A stretch of DNA of 64,000 nucleotides from an uncultured Acidobacteriota bacterium (GTDB lineage Bacteria; Acidobacteriota; Terriglobia; Terriglobales; Acidobacteriaceae): NCBI GenBank assembly GCA_963837635.1, contig CAWINY010000006.1, forward strand, positions 725,236-789,235, in the 5' to 3' direction. Position numbers and translations under genes: made by a program. Positions 4,520 to 37,278 of the stretch are shown here, in pieces. Each line of letters begins with the position of its first letter. The stretch's first letter is position 1. Under the pieces are notes generated by a model. The model searched no databases, had not been told where the DNA came from, and worked only from the letters and a program-made list of their open reading frames with translations.

Positions 4520-4601
4520 CCCACTCAAGCACGCTTTTGCTTGAGTGGGGCATTTCTCAGGCACACCAAACCCACTCAAGCCAACACCAGGCTTGAGTGG
4601 G
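4520..4601. repeat. Two tandem REP-like hairpins (CCCACTCAAGC-N-GCTTGAGTGGG)
   Basis: Hairpin 1 is 4520-4549 and hairpin 2 is 4571-4601. A half copy 'gcttgagtggg' recurs at 33271-33281. Confidence 0.6.
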
Positions 4602-28602: not shown

Positions 28603-29885
28603 GCACCGTAAATAAATAACGTTTACATCTACTATCCTGATCTGTTATTACGGTGGGCATGGACTCGGATGCCCAGCTCGGCCGGTACTTTGCTGGCATG
28701 TGGCCGCATCTGGACGAACACGCTCGGCGTTTGGTGGCTGCCAGCGAAGCTTTGGAACTGGGCTATGGCGGCATCTCGCGAGTCAGCCGCGCCTGCGGCC
28801 TATCGCGGGTCACGTTGACCAAGGGTATCGAGGAATTGAAAGCCGCGCCGCTGGCCCCGGGCCGGATTCGCCACGAGGGCGGCGGACGACACTCGTTGAC
28901 GTCCAGCGATCCCGGCATGGCGCCCGCCTTGGACAGCATGGTCGAACCCACGGCACGCGGCGACCCGCAGTCGCCCTTGCGCTGGACCTGCAAGAGCGCC
29001 CGCACGCTGGCGGCGGAACTAACAGCCCGGCACCACCCGGTCAGCCACACCAAAGTGACCCAACTCCTGCGAGAGAGTGGCTACAGCCTGCAGGGCAATC
29101 GCAAGACGGAGGAAGGGGATGACCATCCCGATCGTGACGCGCAGTTCCGTCATATCAATAGCGCCGTCAAACGCGCTTTGCGGGCAGGCGAGCCCGTCAT
29201 TTCCGTGGACACGAAGAAGAAAGAACTGATCGGTAACTACCAAAACCAGGGCCGCCAGTGGCGCCAAACCGGAACGGCGGATAAGGTCAACGGACATGAT
29301 TTTCCCGGTCCCGATGTACCCCGCGCCTATCCCTACGGAATCTACGACCTGGGGCGCAACGCGGGCTTCGTCAACGTGGGCACGGACCACGACACGGGGG
29401 CCTTCGCGGTGGCTTCGATTCGGGGCTGGTGGCGCGCCGACGGCCGGAACCTGTATCTGGGGGCACGGCGACTGCTGATCACCGCCGATGGCGGGGGTAG
29501 CAACGGCTGGCGGCTGCGACTGTGGAAATGGGAGTTACAGCGTCTGGCCGACCAGACCGGGCTGATACTGATGGTCTGCCATTTTCCGCCGGGCACGAGC
29601 AAATGGAATAAGGTGGAGCATCGGTTGTTTTCCTTCATTTCGTCCAACTGGCGCGGCGAGCCGCTACGCGATTATGAGACGGTGGTACGGCTGATCGCCG
29701 GAACGACGACGGCCAAGGGTTTGAAAGTGACCTGCCGCCTAGATCACCGCAAGTATCCCGTGGGGCGAAAGATCACGGATGAAGAGTTTGCCCATGTCAA
29801 CCTCAAGCCAGACAAATTCCATGGTGAGTGGAACTACACCATTCATCCAAGCAACTAGGTTGTAAATGTTATATATTTACGCCGC
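28603..29885 (+). mobile_element. ISAzo13-family insertion sequence, copy 1 (~1283 bp)
   Basis: Imperfect terminal IRs GCACCGTAAATAAATAACGTTTACA / TGTAAATGTTATATATTTACGCCGC. Flanked by the direct repeat (C)TTAG at 28598-28602 and 29886-29890. End positions are +/-1 bp. Confidence 0.85.
28653..29858 (+). CDS. ISAzo13 family DDE transposase
   Basis: 401 aa. 'ISVDTKKKELIGN', 'ITADGGGSNG.R..LWK', 'HFPPGTSKWNKVEHRLFS' motifs typical of ISAzo13-type transposases. Protein is identical to 61401..62606. Confidence 0.9.
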   Translation: MGMDSDAQLGRYFAGMWPHLDEHARRLVAASEALELGYGGISRVSRACGLSRVTLTKGIEELKAAPLAPGRIRHEGGGRHSLTSSDPGMAPALDSMVEPTARGDPQSPLRWTCKSARTLAAELTARHHPVSHTKVTQLLRESGYSLQGNRKTEEGDDHPDRDAQFRHINSAVKRALRAGEPVISVDTKKKELIGNYQNQGRQWRQTGTADKVNGHDFPGPDVPRAYPYGIYDLGRNAGFVNVGTDHDTGAFAVASIRGWWRADGRNLYLGARRLLITADGGGSNGWRLRLWKWELQRLADQTGLILMVCHFPPGTSKWNKVEHRLFSFISSNWRGEPLRDYETVVRLIAGTTTAKGLKVTCRLDHRKYPVGRKITDEEFAHVNLKPDKFHGEWNYTIHPSN

Positions 29886-29914: not shown

Positions 29915-30504
29915 ATGCGCTACCTGTGCGCTCTCGTCTTTGCGTTGCTGTCGTTCGTTCCTGCAAGAGCCGATGTGCTGTATACGTACACTGGGAATCC
30001 GTGGACTAGCTGCATCAATGGCTATGGCAATTGCGATCCATCCTGGCCCCCCTGACGGCCAGTTTCACCTACTCCGAACGGCTGCCCGCCGACTTCACGG
30101 CTACTTTTTACTATTCGAATTTCGGACCCAGCCTGTACGGCGTGTTTGATCCCCAACGCACCAACATCACGCCCGTATCTGTTACCGTCGGTGACGGGAC
30201 GCTCTACACAGATCCTTTTCCCTATGGAACCTTTGTGAATGGCACGCTCGTTACTGGAGACAGCGGCCAGATTGTAGACTGGCAGTTTTATTGGTTCGGA
30301 TGGTACTGTGGGGACATCGGCACGATTAATTCTACTCCGCAGTCCGATTCGTATTTGCGACATCAGCCAGCGTCGCCAAATTTCAGCAACGCCAACGATC
30401 CAGGCTCCTGGACCGTTACCGAGGTTCCAGAGCCATCGACATTGGCCCTTCTCGGCAGTGGATTGTTGTTGGCGTTTCATCGTGTGCGCCGTCGCTATCG
30501 GTAA
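29915..30504 (+). pseudogene. PEP-CTERM sorting-domain protein, frameshifted at a C6 tract (or sequencing error / phase-variable)
   Basis: The signal-peptide ORF from ATG 29915, 'MRYLCALVFALLSFVPARA|DVLYTYTGNPW...DPSWPP', stops at 30053. The rest of the protein is in the -1 frame (30031..30504) and ends 'VPEPSTLALLGSGLLLAFHRVRRRYR'. One extra C in the run 30047-30052 would join the two frames. Confidence 0.6.
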
Positions 30505-30949: not shown

Positions 30950-31024
30950 TGGTAGCGCTACCGGGAATCGAACCCGGGTTTGAAGATTGAGAATCTTCCG
31001 TCCTAACCCCTAGACGATAGCGCC
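30950..31024 (-). tRNA. tRNA-Glu (anticodon CUC), CCA encoded
   Basis: Hand-folded cloverleaf. Acceptor GGCGCTA/TAGCGCT, D-arm GTCT-AGGGGTTA-GGAC, anticodon arm GAAGA-TTCTCAA-TCTTC, 4-nt variable loop, T-arm CCGGG-TTCGATT-CCCGG, A73-CCA. Confidence 0.9.
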
Positions 31025-31270: not shown

Positions 31271-32365
31271 TCAATCCGTTGTTGCTTTATATTCTCCCGC
31301 TGCTACCGTGGCCGGGGTTGGTCCTGCGAAATACCGGCGCTGGAAATAGAACGACACGTTGACCAGCGCGATCATCACCGGGACCTCGACCAGCGGGCCG
31401 ATCACCGCCGCGAAGGCCGCTCCGGAGTTAATGCCGAACACGGCCACGGCCACCGCAATCGCCAGCTCGAAGTTGTTGCTGGCGGCGGTGAACGCGAGGG
31501 TGGCAGTCTTGGAATAATCCGCGCCCAGTTTCCGGCCCATATAGAACGACACCAGGAACATGACCACGAAGTAAATCAACAGCGGCACGGCGATCCGCGC
31601 CACGTCGAGCGGAAGCCGCACCATGGTTTGGCCCTTTAGGGAAAACATCACCACGATGGTGAACAGCAGGGCAATTAGCGTCAGCGGACCCACCCGCGGA
31701 ACAAACTTGTTTTCATACCACTGCCGTCCTTTAACCGGGATCAGCACGGTGCGGGTAACAAACCCAGCGAGGAAGGGAATGCCGAGGTATATGAAAACGC
31801 TTTTCGCGATTTGGGCGATAGAGATATTGACCACGACTCCGTGTAGCCCGATCCATTCCGGCAGCACCGTGATGAATACCCAGGCATAGACCGAGTAAAA
31901 GAACACCTGAAACAGGGAATTGAAGGCGACCAGACCGGCCGCGTACTGGGTGTCGCCCTTGGCCAGTTCGTTCCAGACGATGACCATCGCAATGCAACGC
32001 GCCAGGCCGATCAGAATAAGCCCCGCCATGTATTCCGGATATCCGCGCAGGAAAATGATGGCGAGCACGAACATCAGGATTGGTCCCACGATCCAGTTCT
32101 GCACCAGGGATAATCCCAGAACCCGCTTGTTGCGAAAGACTTCATGCAGCTCTTCGTAGCGCACCTTGGTGAAGGGCGGGTACATCATCAGGATCAAGCC
32201 GGCGGCAATGGGAATCGAAGTCGTGCCCACGCTAAAGCGATTGAGGAAGGGCACGATCCCCGGCGCCAGCCACCCCCCCACGACGCCGAGAACCATCGCT
32301 CCGAAAATCCATGCCGTCAGATAACGATCGAGAAAACGCAGCCTGCGCGTGCTTGCTCCGCTCAT
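31271..32365 (-). CDS. acr3: Arsenite efflux permease ACR3
   Basis: 364 aa with about 10 TM segments. '[10 protein letters not shown]', '[10 protein letters not shown]', '[13 protein letters not shown]' ACR3 signatures. Confidence 0.9.
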
Positions 32366-32373
32366 TGGCTGGC

Positions 32374-33222
32374 CTACTTTCTACCGTGCAGCTTGATCGA
32401 GGCCACGGCTTCGGCTGCCTCGCGTACCAGCTTGTCCGGGTTTTTCAGAGATGAAGCCGAGATCGTGGACCCGCAGCATGACGTTCCCCCGCCGCAGCTG
32501 TCTTTACCCTGAGCCTGAGCCTGAGCCTGAGGCGCGAGCATCTTCACCAGATCGGGACCGTAAGCGATCCGCGGGATCGAGAGATCGCGCAGGCCGGCGG
32601 CGAGCGCCGTGCTGAGATAGTCGGTCAGCAGACTGGCCCCGGAAACACACCCCACGTAGGCGCTTATGCTTCTTGTGAGCGCTTCCGGCAGCGGCTTGAG
32701 CAGCACGATGTCACTCACCGCAAAGCGGCCGCCCGGCTTCAGCACGCGGGCGATTTCCCGGAAGACCGCGGGCTTGTCCGCCGAAAGATTGATCACGCAA
32801 TTGCTGATGACGTAATCGACAGTTGCGCTTTCGACCGGCAGATCTTCGATGAATCCCTTGCGGAATTCTACGTTCGCCACCCCGCGTTTTTCCGCGTTCT
32901 GCCGCGCCAGGGCAAGCATGTCATCGGTCATATCCACGCCGATCACGCGTCCCGCGGCTCCGACCCGGTGCCAGGCGAGAAACGCATCGAAGCCCGCGCC
33001 CGCGCCGAGATCCACCACCGTCATGCCGGGAGCGAGTTCGGTGAGCGCCAGGGGATTGCCGCAACCCAGGCCGAGGTTAGCGTCGCCGGCCAGCGCCAAG
33101 TCTTCGTCGCTGTAGCCGATCGAGCGCGCCACTTCTTCGGTCGGCGCTCCGCAGGCCGACGCCTCGCCGCGCGCCACCGCTCCATAGTGCTCTTCCACTG
33201 CGTTGGTAATTTCGTGCTTCAT
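32374..33222 (-). CDS. arsM: Arsenite S-adenosylmethionine methyltransferase
   Basis: SAM motif '[13 protein letters not shown]'. Conserved Cys positions in 'LGLGCGNP', 'ISNCVINL', 'YVGCVSGA'. Cys-rich tail '[10 protein letters not shown]'. Confidence 0.85.
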
Positions 33223-33839
33223 TCGGCTTCCTCGATTCTGGGGCGGACGCCCCGTCCGAGCCCGATTCTTGCTTGAGTGGGAATTTCCCCGGGGTTCTTG
33301 GTGCGTAGTTTAGTTGCTCGCCGCTCCTCGCGGGCGATGGGATGGCCAAGCGAGGAACGCTCATCGGGCAGCTTGGCGATGGGCGCATTCAAAGCACAGC
33401 AGTTCGCCGATTCCATGGCGTGGTTCAGCAGACTCAGGGCTTTGAGGATCTGGGCGCGTTGTCGTTCGGGCAGGGAACTAACGATGCGCTTGGTGCGCTG
33501 GCGCATGAGGTCATCGAGTTGCTTGCGCGTGCGGCGCCCCTCGGGTGTAATCCGCACCATGGCGGCGCGCCCATCGCTCTGCGCCCCACGGACGCGCTCC
33601 ACCAGGCCGCGCGTTTCGAGCTTTTCCAGCACGCGGGTCATGGCGCTCGGCGTAATCCTGGAGCTGGCTGCCAGATCGCAGATGCGCGCCCCCTCTTGCG
33701 CTACCAGGGTGCGCAGGATGGCGCATTGGCGCTGGCTCAGTCCTTCGCAGCAGACCTCGTCCGGGCCGATTTGCCCGAGGATGCGGGCCAGTCGCTCCAG
33801 TTCATTCCACCAGCGCAGGGTATCGGAATCGGATTTCAC
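33219..33839 (-). CDS. MarR-family transcriptional regulator with two vicinal Cys pairs (putative As(III)-responsive regulator)
   Basis: Winged HTH 'LSQRQCAILRTLVAQEGARICDLAASSRITPSAMTRVLEKLETRGLVERV'. 'EVCCEG' and 'ANCCAL' pairs. Its stop overlaps the arsM ATG (ATGA). Confidence 0.75.
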   Translation of the reverse strand: MKSDSDTLRWWNELERLARILGQIGPDEVCCEGLSQRQCAILRTLVAQEGARICDLAASSRITPSAMTRVLEKLETRGLVERVRGAQSDGRAAMVRITPEGRRTRKQLDDLMRQRTKRIVSSLPERQRAQILKALSLLNHAMESANCCALNAPIAKLPDERSSLGHPIAREERRATKLRTKNPGEIPTQARIGLGRGVRPRIEEAE

Positions 33840-34098
33840 GAGAAAAGGCTAACGCAATATACTTGTATGCGTCAAGCAAGTAAACGCTCGGCAAGAAAAA
33901 GTTCTGGGTGTGTTCAATTGCCCGCATTTCGCCGAAAAGAGAGAGTTGTCATTCCGACGCGGAGCGCAGCGAAGCGGAGGAATCTGCAGCTCCCGTTAAT
34001 TTGCCAGCACTGCGAACGCACTGAACAGCGAGCGCCGCTATCTATTCATGCTCGGTAGTTGCCGCAGGTCATGAGCAGAACGACAACCGTCCGATCCC

Positions 34099-34530: not shown

Positions 34531-35124
34531 AGTTTCTCCCAACAGGATTCGATGGAACCAGAGCCCGCAACGGGAATGCCGATTGATAGCCAAGTCGCCG
34601 AAAAGCGCCGCCGTGGATCACATCTAAGCCGCGCCCCGTCCCCATCCGAATCTTCGAGCAGACGATGCAACGCCATCCAGTGTTCGAGAGTGTGTTCGTA
34701 TCCTGAATCATATGAAGCGACACGCGACCCTTCCCGAGATTCAAGGGTGGTCATTGGTTGAACGGCATTATGGTACATCACGGTTTCACCCCTTGCATTC
34801 TCGGATGCGCGGAATACGCCCGCCGAAATTTGCCGAGCCCGCAAAAACCAGATGGAACGGATTCGTCCTATTTGCTACTTCCAAGAAGCGTAAAACAAGA
34901 CATAAGTAACTAACCTTAGTTGTCTGCCCGGATCTGTATTCTTTTTTGAGGGCCACAGAAACCTCTCAAATTTGTCGGGTCAGGTGAAAGTTGGATAGTA
35001 CTTACCACAGTAATGCGATAAAGTGACACGAACCGAGCTAAACTCACTTCATTCCCGATAGAAAACCCTTGGCGTGATCGTCCTGACGATTCCGTCTCCG
35101 GGAAAATTCTTGGGCAGCGCGCAT

Positions 35125-37278
35125 ATGGACTCCTCCGATTGGCAAGAACCGAAGGTGGCGGATGAGGCGGACCTCGAGCGCCTGGAACTAGCCGACATCA
35201 TTGACGTTGAATTGGTTCAATCGCTGATGGACGACTTTTATGAGCTGGTGCCCATTCACATGTCCATCCTTGACGTCCAAGGCAAACCGCTCGTCGGCGT
35301 AGGCTGGCAAGATATCTGCATGAAATTCCACCGGGTCAGTCCGGAGAGCTGCAAGAACTGCCTAGAGACTGCCACCGAACTTACCCTTGATGTTCCCCCG
35401 GGCGAGTATAGGCTCTTCAAATGCAAGAACAATATGTGGGATGTCGCCACCCCGCTGATCGTGGCGGGAAAGCACGTCGGCAACCTGTTTGCGGGACAAT
35501 TCTTCTTCGACGGCGAGCTGCGGGATCGCGAACTCTTTCGCGCTCAAGCCATGCGTTACGGCTTCAACGAGAAAGAGTATCTTGCGGCAATGGACGCGGT
35601 GCCGCAGGTGAGCCGGGAGCGTTTGCACAGGTGCATGGGCTTTTTGATCAAGCTGGCCCACATGCTCTCGGCCATGGGCTACAGCAACCTCAAGCTGGCC
35701 CGGTCGTTAGCGGAACGCAAACAGTCCCAAGAGGCTTTGACTAAGAGCGAGGAACTGTTGCGCCGGCTGATTGACGCGCAAATGGTTGGCTGCGTCCTGT
35801 CGAACCAAGGGCAAATCGAAGTCGCCAATGACACCTTCTTGGCCATGCTCGGCTACACGCGAGAGGAGTTGGAACGGGGAGAGGTTAACTCCTACAGCTT
35901 CACGCCTTCTGCTTACCACGACAAGCTGGACGCTGCCATCAGCCTACTTCAGGCGACGGGCTTGTGTCCGCCCTTTGAAACCTTGCATCGGCGGAAGGAT
36001 GGCACCGATATTCCTGTTCTGGTCGCCTTCGCCAAAACCGACAAGCCCGGGGTAAGGATTGGATGGGTGCTCGACATCTCGCGGCAGAAAGAACTCGAAG
36101 CTCAGCTCCTGCAGACCCAGAAAATGGAAGCGGTCGGCGAGTTGGCGGGAGGCATCGCCCACGATTTTAACAATCTGCTGATGGCCATCAGCAGCCACGC
36201 CGAGCTCCTGCTCGCCACCATGCCGGAGAATCCGCGGGTGGGGAAGACTGCTTCCACCATTTTGGCGGCGACCATGCACGGCGGCCAACTGACCCGCAAG
36301 CTGCTGGCCTTCAGTCGGAAGCAAGACTTGAGTATATCCAGCTTCAACCTGAACGAGCTGCTGGCGGAAACGGCGGAGCTGGTCATGCATCTTCTTCCCG
36401 GATCGATCGATTTTCGAGTCCAGCCCTCTCCGGCGCCCTGTTGGGTCAGGACCGACCGGACGCTGATGGAACAAGTGATGGTCAACCTGGTTCTCAACGC
36501 GCGCGATGCGATGCCCGATGGCGGCAAGTTGGTCGTGCGCGCGGCTGGGGTTGTGGTTCGAGACGAAGATGTTAGCTTTCACAGTGCGGTTCCGGCCGGC
36601 CATTACGGGCTGATCACCGTTGCCGACACCGGCCACGGGATTCCCGAGCAACTGCATAGCAGGATTTTTGAGCCTTTTTTTACGACCAAGCCGAAGGAAC
36701 GAGGCACCGGACTCGGGCTGGCCATGGTCTATGGCACGGTCACCCAGAGCGGCGGGCATATCCGTGTCAAAAGCAATGTCAACACCGGAACTACGCTGGC
36801 GGTCTATCTTCCGACGATCGCGGAACCGGCCCTTCAGGAAGCAGAGGACGTCCCCTGTCTGATGGTCGCTAATGCGAAGCCATGCCCGGTCCATGGCACG
36901 GTGCTGGTGGTCGATGACGAAGCTCTGGTGCGCTCCAGTGTGCGGGTGTTCTTGGAGGACCGGGGACTTCGTGTGTCCGATACCGGTAATCCGCGGGAAG
37001 CCATTCACCTGGCAGAGCAGCTAGGCGAGGAGCTATCCACGCTGATTACCGATGTGATCATGCCGGATCTGCCCGGGACCGAACTGGCCCGGAAGCTGCT
37101 GTCGATTCGGCCTGATCTTCAGGTCATATTTATGTCTGGATACGCCGCTGGCGCCATTCGTCAGGAAGAGTTTCCCTCCGCCAAGTTTCTGCAGAAGCCA
37201 TTCACGCGGGCAACCCTGCTGGGCTCCGTCTGTGGCCACTGCAAACGCAAGCCTCTGGCGGAGAGTTCCGAACAGTAG
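35125..37278 (+). CDS. Hybrid sensor histidine kinase with PocR-like sensory domain, PAS, HisKA, HATPase and C-terminal receiver
   Basis: PocR-like 'ILDVQGKPLVGVGWQDICMKFHR....FKCKNNMWDVATPLIVAGKHVGNLFAGQFFF'. H-box 'GGIAHDFNNLLMAI'. 'DTGHGIP...GTGLGLAMVYG'. Receiver 'VLVVDDEALVR...LITDVIMPD'. Confidence 0.8.
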   Translation: MDSSDWQEPKVADEADLERLELADIIDVELVQSLMDDFYELVPIHMSILDVQGKPLVGVGWQDICMKFHRVSPESCKNCLETATELTLDVPPGEYRLFKCKNNMWDVATPLIVAGKHVGNLFAGQFFFDGELRDRELFRAQAMRYGFNEKEYLAAMDAVPQVSRERLHRCMGFLIKLAHMLSAMGYSNLKLARSLAERKQSQEALTKSEELLRRLIDAQMVGCVLSNQGQIEVANDTFLAMLGYTREELERGEVNSYSFTPSAYHDKLDAAISLLQATGLCPPFETLHRRKDGTDIPVLVAFAKTDKPGVRIGWVLDISRQKELEAQLLQTQKMEAVGELAGGIAHDFNNLLMAISSHAELLLATMPENPRVGKTASTILAATMHGGQLTRKLLAFSRKQDLSISSFNLNELLAETAELVMHLLPGSIDFRVQPSPAPCWVRTDRTLMEQVMVNLVLNARDAMPDGGKLVVRAAGVVVRDEDVSFHSAVPAGHYGLITVADTGHGIPEQLHSRIFEPFFTTKPKERGTGLGLAMVYGTVTQSGGHIRVKSNVNTGTTLAVYLPTIAEPALQEAEDVPCLMVANAKPCPVHGTVLVVDDEALVRSSVRVFLEDRGLRVSDTGNPREAIHLAEQLGEELSTLITDVIMPDLPGTELARKLLSIRPDLQVIFMSGYAAGAIRQEEFPSAKFLQKPFTRATLLGSVCGHCKRKPLAESSEQ

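Follow-up and report, generated by a model that had tools for sequence, protein, structure and literature searches.

An arsenic operon headed by a MarR-type gene

We analysed an arsenic operon encoded in a stretch of 64,000 nucleotides (referred to below as the window) from contig CAWINY010000006.1 of an uncultured bacterium of the Acidobacteriota, class Terriglobia. The operon consists of three minus-strand genes that follow one another head to tail, in the order regulator, arsM and acr3. The first gene (33219-33839) has a GTG start and codes for a regulator of 206 residues, identified from its open reading frame and from family models as a protein of the MarR family. The second gene, arsM (32374-33222), codes for an As(III) S-adenosylmethionine methyltransferase of 282 residues (NF008823, 287.5 bits against a cut-off of 263), and the third, acr3 (31271-32365), for an arsenite efflux permease of 364 residues (TIGR00832, 459 bits against a cut-off of 282.8). 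The stop codon of the regulator gene and the ATG of arsM share 4 nt (ATGA), suggesting that arsM is translationally coupled to the regulator gene through this overlap, and a gap of 8 nt separates arsM from acr3. The cysteines of ArsM comprise Cys24, Cys54, Cys142 and Cys192, together with a cysteine-rich tail; we take the four numbered residues to stand in the motif contexts, or catalytic positions, known for ArsM. The single cysteine of Acr3 is found within RCIAMV, presumably at the catalytic position of the Acr3 family. The genome from which the window derives (4.3 Mb, 8 contigs) has only one copy of acr3, and the window arsM is the sole genome match that spans the whole query, the remaining matches being partial and no more than 52% identical. 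The GC content of the operon gave no signal of a foreign origin (0.57-0.64, against 0.60 for the genome).

To what family the regulator belongs was assessed with family models and with a predicted structure. The protein scored above the cut-offs of two MarR models (PF01047, 42.7 bits against 24.6; PF12802, 36.4 bits against 27) and under those of ArsR-type models (HTH_5, 18.5 bits against 22; NF033788, 28.9 bits against 55). An AlphaFold2 monomer computed from a 20-sequence alignment, with a mean predicted local distance difference test (pLDDT) score of 63.5, has helices at residues 3-21 (α1), 36-47 (α2), 53-59 (α3), 64-76 (α4), 99-122 (α5) and 125-144 (α6), and wing strands at residues 80-84 and 93-97. 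The resulting order, α1-α2-α3-α4-β-β-α5-α6, is the MarR topology; residues 147-206 were predicted to be disordered. When the model was compared with the PDB using Foldseek, the top 50 matches all belonged to the MarR family (Rv0880, MexR, ZitR, BldR, MepR, SlyA and others), and no ArsR/SmtB structure was found among them. By sequence, no closer solved structure was found in the PDB, the best match being an ordinary MarR at 45.6 bits. Because the Pfam and NCBIfam scores, the predicted topology and the 50 Foldseek matches agree, the predicted fold of the regulator is that of MarR and not of ArsR.

The regulator carries two vicinal cysteine pairs. Cys30 and Cys31 (codons at 33747-33752, minus strand) are located in the linker between α1 and α2, in the sequence GPDEVCCEG, and Cys147 and Cys148 (33396-33401, minus strand) directly follow α6, in the sequence ANCCALNAP. 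An earlier note, made by reading this DNA, had described the three-gene operon with its ATGA overlap and its 8-nt gap, a MarR core rather than an ArsR/SmtB fold in the regulator, and the motifs EVCCEG and ANCCAL. The coordinates given above agree with that description of the operon, the family scores, predicted topology and Foldseek matches with that of the core, and the two motifs were found at residues 28-33 and 145-150, respectively.

Conservation of the cysteine pairs, the arsM linkage and the operator

A homolog search with the regulator returned 699 matches, of which we inspected the best 120. These proteins are 72-87% identical to the regulator and nearly all of them have 162-167 residues; their named sources are Terriglobales, Korobacter and Acidisarcina. 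One of the homologs, P0049, carries an annotation to Candidatus Korobacter versatilis. Both cysteine pairs were present in every one of these best 120 of the 699 homologs. Gene order was examined in a set of 75 loci taken from contigs of one genome per species, all from Terriglobia or from metagenome-assembled genomes of Acidobacteriota, in which the regulator is 51-84% identical to the one in the window. The clade is patchy: of 401 genomes sampled from the phylum, only 4 have it. The first pair was invariant in 75 of 75 loci and the second in all 74 loci with a complete gene, and across the complete loci the two pairs are spaced by 116-118 residues (117 in the window regulator). A fifth cysteine, Cys39 (codon at 33723-33725, minus strand; RQC, at the start of α2), is facultative: among the 75 loci, residue 39 is Cys in 50, Thr in 23, and Ala and Ser in one each. 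Two representatives of clusters built at 50% identity, P0141 and P0153, which are sister to the Terriglobia clade, have a further CC (EQCCWD) in place of the invariant WW of helix α1 (WWxELE) and are without the C-terminal pair. In these proteins the same scaffold seems to bear its cysteines in another arrangement.

The arsM gene was found directly downstream of the regulator gene in 71 of the 75 loci, and three of the remaining four stop at a contig edge. The 4-nt overlap between stop and start codons was retained in 40 of the 71. In the closer relatives a gene for an arsC of the low-molecular-weight (LMW) phosphatase type and acr3 follow, and the more distant relatives keep the regulator-arsM pair only. 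Several more distant MarR proteins that bear the CC motif (26-35% identity) also adjoin a gene for ArsM (loci L079 and L080) or an Acr3-like gene (L084), and a control MarR without the motif had no ars genes nearby on the one informative contig (L088).

Upstream of the regulator gene we found a pseudo-palindrome of 21 bp, ACTTGCTTGACGCATACAAGT (33861-33881, minus strand), with arms of 9 bp on either side of 3 central positions. The consensus of this putative operator, ATTTGCTTGACnCATGCAAGT, was found upstream of the regulator gene in all 74 related loci for which upstream DNA was available, every locus matching at least 12 of 14 core positions. The operator shares sequence with a putative promoter, at the -35 hexamer and in the spacer. 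The -35 hexamer of this promoter, TTGACG (33870-33875, minus strand), lies inside the operator and has the form TTGACn in 59 of 72 loci, and its -10 hexamer, TAGCCT (33846-33851, minus strand), ends 6 nt before the GTG start codon. The spacing of these elements is conserved: the order TTGACn, 17-18 nt, TAnnnT, 6-7 nt and start codon was found in about 62 of 72 loci, and reads TTGACG, 18 nt, TAGCCT, 6 nt and GTG in the window. Because of this geometry, and because no Shine-Dalgarno sequence is visible before the GTG of the regulator gene in the window, the operon transcript is probably leaderless. A repressor bound to the palindrome would occlude the operon promoter. A generic consensus scan preferred another promoter, TTTACT-17-TATATT (33884-33856); the relatives do not keep the -35 hexamer of this rival. 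Scanning the genome within one mismatch for further members of the regulon gave no second operator of comparable position or quality; a site at C4:110000 (on contig C4) has one mismatch, but it is without the CATGCAA arm. A short palindrome, GGAATCTGCAG/CTGCAGCTCCC, is found at 33979-33994, about 100 nt upstream of the operator.

No ArsR gene was found in the operon or in the window, and the two ArsR/SmtB genes of the genome that scored above the family cut-off are both on other contigs. The paralog on contig C4 has no cysteines at all, and its gene precedes that of an Mrp/Nuo-type membrane subunit. The cysteines of the paralog on contig C7 are Cys39, Cys99 and Cys110; they form no vicinal pair, and none stands at the classical helix-3 position (ELCVCDL). 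Its gene is flanked by a fragment of a histidine kinase on one side and by a fragment with a molybdopterin domain on the other. In that region (C7:1365299-1366553) the paralog is downstream of an open reading frame of 226 codons with a C-terminal molybdopterin-dinucleotide-binding domain only, apparently the remnant of a molybdoenzyme gene. These genes bear on the idea that the four cysteines of the window regulator bind Zn or Fe-S in a structural role or as a cofactor while the protein answers to another effector, or that one of the distant ArsR/SmtB paralogs senses arsenic for the operon. Four-cysteine sites often bind Zn or Fe-S, and of the two paralogs above the cut-off one does have three cysteines. 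However, the C4 paralog has none, the C7 paralog lacks both the ELCVCDL cysteine and a vicinal pair, and the neighbours of both are genes other than ars genes; the conserved operator, moreover, is at the promoter of the MarR gene itself. We know of no MarR with an Fe-S cluster, and we consider either form of this explanation extremely unlikely. The earlier note had proposed a survey of homologs for cysteine pairs that accompany ars genes, and had named control of the operon by a separate arsR as a result that would speak against its reading. The survey gave pairs invariant in 74 of 74 complete relatives, with arsM directly downstream in 71 of 75 loci, and no sign of such an arsR emerged, both paralogs being placed beside non-ars genes.

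Kinship with MarR_ars and a model for induction

A MarR_ars subfamily has been defined by Yu et al. (2021; bioRxiv 10.1101/2021.08.12.456183), who reported that ars operons from many phyla contain MarR genes, placed upstream of arsV, arsN or arsP. AdMarR_ars of Achromobacter sp./deleyi As-55 represses both arsV and itself. In electrophoretic mobility shift assays (EMSA) carried out in a buffer containing dithiothreitol (DTT), it bound both promoters and was released by As(III) and by Sb(III), and mutation showed that the response requires Cys36, Cys37 and Cys157 (10.1101/2021.08.12.456183). We found no later work on MarR_ars in the literature searched. The principle of a MarR-scaffold sensor of As(III) that has a vicinal pair near its N-terminus and a cysteine near its C-terminus is already published. 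The earlier note had suggested that the window regulator could be an independent, MarR-based solution to arsenite sensing; independence from ArsR stands, but the solution is not new, as it matches the MarR_ars of Yu et al. (2021).

The relationship between the two proteins was examined at several levels. The mutagenic primers for AdMarR_ars translate to RDRDRICCYDVSV (Cys36/37) and VASTCAADP (Cys157), and RDRDRICCYDVSV matches the reading of a clade of relatives, QFRDRDRxCCYDxSVSQCYAL ... GGSCCVVR. A homolog search from one look-alike in this clade (P0197) gave 26 relatives, none of them labelled Achromobacter. One member of this AdMarR-like clade (L085) is directly upstream of a gene for an ArsM-like methyltransferase, and another (L086) is near LMWPc, MIP, acetyltransferase and glyoxalase genes, in an ars cluster. 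In a profile-profile comparison with hhalign, the alignment of the Terriglobia proteins matched that of the AdMarR-like clade with a probability of 99.3% and an E value of 2e-20. Within it, GPDEVCCEGLSQRQC fell exactly on DRDRACCYDVSVSQC, CC on CC, and the C-terminal CC pairs fell within one column of each other, in a gap-rich tail. We also built a maximum-likelihood tree of 116 full-length MarR proteins, made up of the nearest 50%-cluster representatives and of members of both clades. An exhaustive profile search showed that the N-terminal CC extends beyond the tight clade, 73 of these 116 sequences having it, and the label was clustered on the tree (0 of 500 shuffles gave a value as low), although the deep branches are weak. 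We conclude that the window regulator falls within the MarR_ars subfamily or, at the least, in a lineage closely sister to it.

The regulator resembles AdMarR_ars in its MarR fold, in its position within an arsenic gene cluster and in its apparent autoregulation. Both proteins have a CC in the α1-α2 linker, in a [DE]-x-x-CC-x3-[ST]-x2-Q motif, and both have cysteine after the last helix, 121 residues past the first pair in AdMarR_ars and 117 in the window regulator. In contrast, the target here is arsM, with acr3, and not the arsV, arsN or arsP of the published cases, and a C-terminal vicinal pair, making four invariant cysteines, replaces the single Cys157. The window regulator also differs in belonging to a tight clade, confined to Terriglobia and known here from sequence alone, with a 21-bp operator of its own and a probably leaderless promoter, and the window copy differs further in having an insertion of 43 residues derived from a repetitive extragenic palindromic (REP) sequence, described below. 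In Yu et al. (2021) and in the other literature found, there is no Terriglobia-wide marR-arsM(-arsC)-acr3 cassette and no invariant second vicinal pair; a conserved operator, a leaderless geometry and a REP-derived in-frame insertion are likewise absent from these sources.

We propose, with a probability of about 0.78, that the regulator is an autoregulated MarR_ars repressor that comes off its 21-bp operator when a trivalent metalloid binds to Cys30/31 and Cys147/148, turning on arsM and acr3. The proposal draws on the MarR fold of the protein, on cysteine pairs that do not vary, on a strict linkage to arsM, on conservation of the operator and of the promoter geometry, and on homology to a characterised subfamily. 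In detail, a dimer of the regulator would bind the palindrome ACTTGCTTGACGCATACAAGT, which extends over the -35 hexamer and spacer of the regulator's promoter, and would thereby silence the leaderless marR-arsM-acr3 transcript. As(III), and probably also Sb(III) or methylarsenite, would be bound by the thiolates of Cys30, Cys31, Cys147 and Cys148, both sites being in the region that, in a MarR protein, would link the dimer interface to the DNA-binding lobes. The metalloid-bound repressor would then leave the DNA, so that ArsM, for methylation, and Acr3, for export, would be made.

Several points weigh against this proposal. In the clade under study, binding to DNA, the identity of the inducer, the stoichiometry, the coordination chemistry and the leaderless start are all inferred. 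The regions of the two pairs are of low confidence in the AlphaFold2 monomer (residues 21-29 and 147-206 score under 50 in pLDDT), AdMarR_ars was compared through peptides derived from primers and through a look-alike clade and not through its full sequence, and the maximum-likelihood tree, with its weak deep nodes, gives no resolved sister relationship between the Terriglobia clade and the AdMarR-like one. With regard to the window copy itself, the operator has one core mismatch and the 43-residue insertion is situated 9 residues past the second pair; either could weaken its function.

One rival to this proposal concerns the physiological inducer. It could be methylarsenite, MAs(III), or another trivalent organoarsenical and not inorganic As(III), with the same repressor holding one R-As(III) at each pair via two thiolates. 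ArsM itself yields MAs(III), which competitors produce as well; the gene that invariably accompanies the regulator gene is arsM, and not one for an efflux pump; and there are two pairs of invariant cysteines, four residues in all, although three would be enough for an S3 site for As(III). In Shewanella, an ArsR selective for MAs(III) makes do with a single vicinal pair. AdMarR_ars, however, responds to inorganic As(III) as well as Sb(III), and the operon of the closer relatives also contains arsC and acr3, both of which deal with inorganic arsenic; on balance, an organoarsenical in place of As(III) seems unlikely.

The proposed repressor can be compared with two groups of known sensors. The ArsR/SmtB repressors that respond to As(III) are alike in being autoregulated repressors of ars genes and in taking As(III) on cysteine thiolates, often with a vicinal pair, at a site that varies by lineage (R773 ArsR; Cys95/96/102 in ArsR of A. 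ferrooxidans; Cys15/16/55 in ArsR of C. glutamicum). They differ in having an unrelated fold and in belonging to a family under whose HTH_5 and NF033788 cut-offs the window regulator falls. The thiol-based MarR proteins (OhrR, MexR, MgrA/SarZ) and the metal-responsive ones (ZitR/AdcR and Cu-oxidised E. coli MarR) share the scaffold of the regulator, and in them too the spacing of the two winged helix-turn-helix lobes is set by the chemistry of cysteines or metals that are part of the dimerisation domain or close to it. In contrast, they sense peroxides, Zn(II) or Cu-driven oxidation, have no linkage to ars genes and are without two vicinal pairs. Sensing by thiol oxidation is nevertheless common among MarR proteins, vicinal or paired cysteines can form disulfides, and oxidised MexR was among the Foldseek matches. 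Conceivably, then, the pairs act as a redox switch as in OhrR and MexR, a disulfide driven by an oxidant or an electrophile freeing the repressor and arsenic acting indirectly, via oxidative stress. We regard this as very unlikely, since no peroxidase or ohr-type gene is linked to the regulator gene, whose partner is arsM in 71 of the 75 loci, and since the protein is far under the cut-off of the OhrR model (NF052638, 24.5 bits against 200; likewise far below that of the AdcR model). In addition, the related AdMarR_ars was released by As(III) and Sb(III) despite the DTT in the EMSA buffer.

The regulator tail, flanking genes and implications

The insertion in the window regulator consists of 129 nt (43 codons) in frame (33240-33368, minus strand) and contains a decayed REP-like arm. 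It is placed between AKL157 and the ancestral end of the protein, RIEEAE, and the alignment with homologs indicates that the native C-terminus (...AKL-x-RIEExE-stop) is intact but split by the 43 codons. The earlier note had described the last ~45 residues as encoded by REP-like sequence; the REP word is present, but it belongs to an internal insertion that precedes the ancestral C-terminus. This word, GCTTGAGTGGG, occurs once inside the insertion, which holds one arm of a REP-like hairpin, CCCACTCAAGC...GCTTGAGTGGG. Throughout the genome, the REP-like 11-mer is found 44 times, in 21 clusters, where about 2 occurrences would be expected. The hairpin has the form GGCCCACTCAAGC-(7-9 nt)-GCTTGAGTGGGCC and is often present as two in tandem, with clusters such as that at C4:445611-445941, and four copies of the hairpin word are found at 4520-4601 of the window. 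We considered whether the 129-nt insert could be a multi-copy miniature inverted-repeat transposable element and rejected this, as the genome has no second full copy and only fragments of 15-24 nt recur.

The insertion is missing from 118 of the 120 close homologs. It is present in P0002, from a sister assembly (locus L087, 87% identical), where it is the same minus two codons. Codons of the window gene and of P0002 differ at 5 synonymous and 12 non-synonymous positions in the insert, and at 20 synonymous and 11 non-synonymous positions in the core. Judged from these counts relative to the core, the insert appears to be drifting almost neutrally with its reading frame kept. The frame is likely maintained because a frameshift would destroy the ATGA junction that is coupled to arsM. 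The insert was predicted to be disordered by AlphaFold2 (pLDDT below 50). In the genome of P0002, arsM and acr3 are frameshifted or fragmented (L087:6611-8533), arsM breaking after GLGL and acr3 being called as 177 residues; these disruptions could mark pseudogenes or could be indel errors of long reads.

On the downstream side, a gene for tRNA-Glu(CUC) (30950-31024, minus strand) is found 246 nt from the acr3 stop codon, and about 1.1 kb past it there is an intact gene for a DDE transposase of the ISAzo13 type (28653-29858, plus strand; PF07592, 451.6 bits). The plus strand codes at 30031-30504 for a small secreted protein, whose sorting signal is of the PEP-CTERM type (PF07589, 27.8 bits). 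On the upstream side, a gene for a hybrid sensor kinase with a PocR sensory domain and PAS, HisKA, HATPase and receiver domains (35074-37278, plus strand) is divergent from the ars operon, and the gap of about 1.2 kb between them has no convincing gene.

Because its principle was published in 2021 (Yu et al.), the analysis leaves the general picture unchanged. It adds an arsM-acr3 pair to the control of arsV by the single characterised MarR_ars, and the layout of four cysteines in two pairs offers a natural variant for probing how a MarR protein couples metalloid binding to the release of DNA. It also provides a concrete promoter and operator that may be used for reporters and for predicting the onset of methylation. 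Arsenic methylation by soil bacteria alters the mobility and the toxicity of arsenic, for example in paddy and peat soils, where Acidobacteriota are abundant, and the Acidobacteriota arsM genes described here appear to be under a sensor of the MarR_ars type with a defined 21-bp operator and not under ArsR. We suggest, tentatively, that the Terriglobia clade may form a branch of MarR_ars with a function of its own, devoted to the methylation of arsenic, in which the two pairs form one four-thiolate site or two two-thiolate sites and differ in selectivity or stoichiometry from the three-cysteine AdMarR_ars, for example in sensing methylarsenite, which its own operon would produce; the idea is possible but doubtful. 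If true, leaderless, operator-gated marR-arsM cassettes would be the switch for arsenic methylation in those soil Acidobacteriota that carry the cassette.

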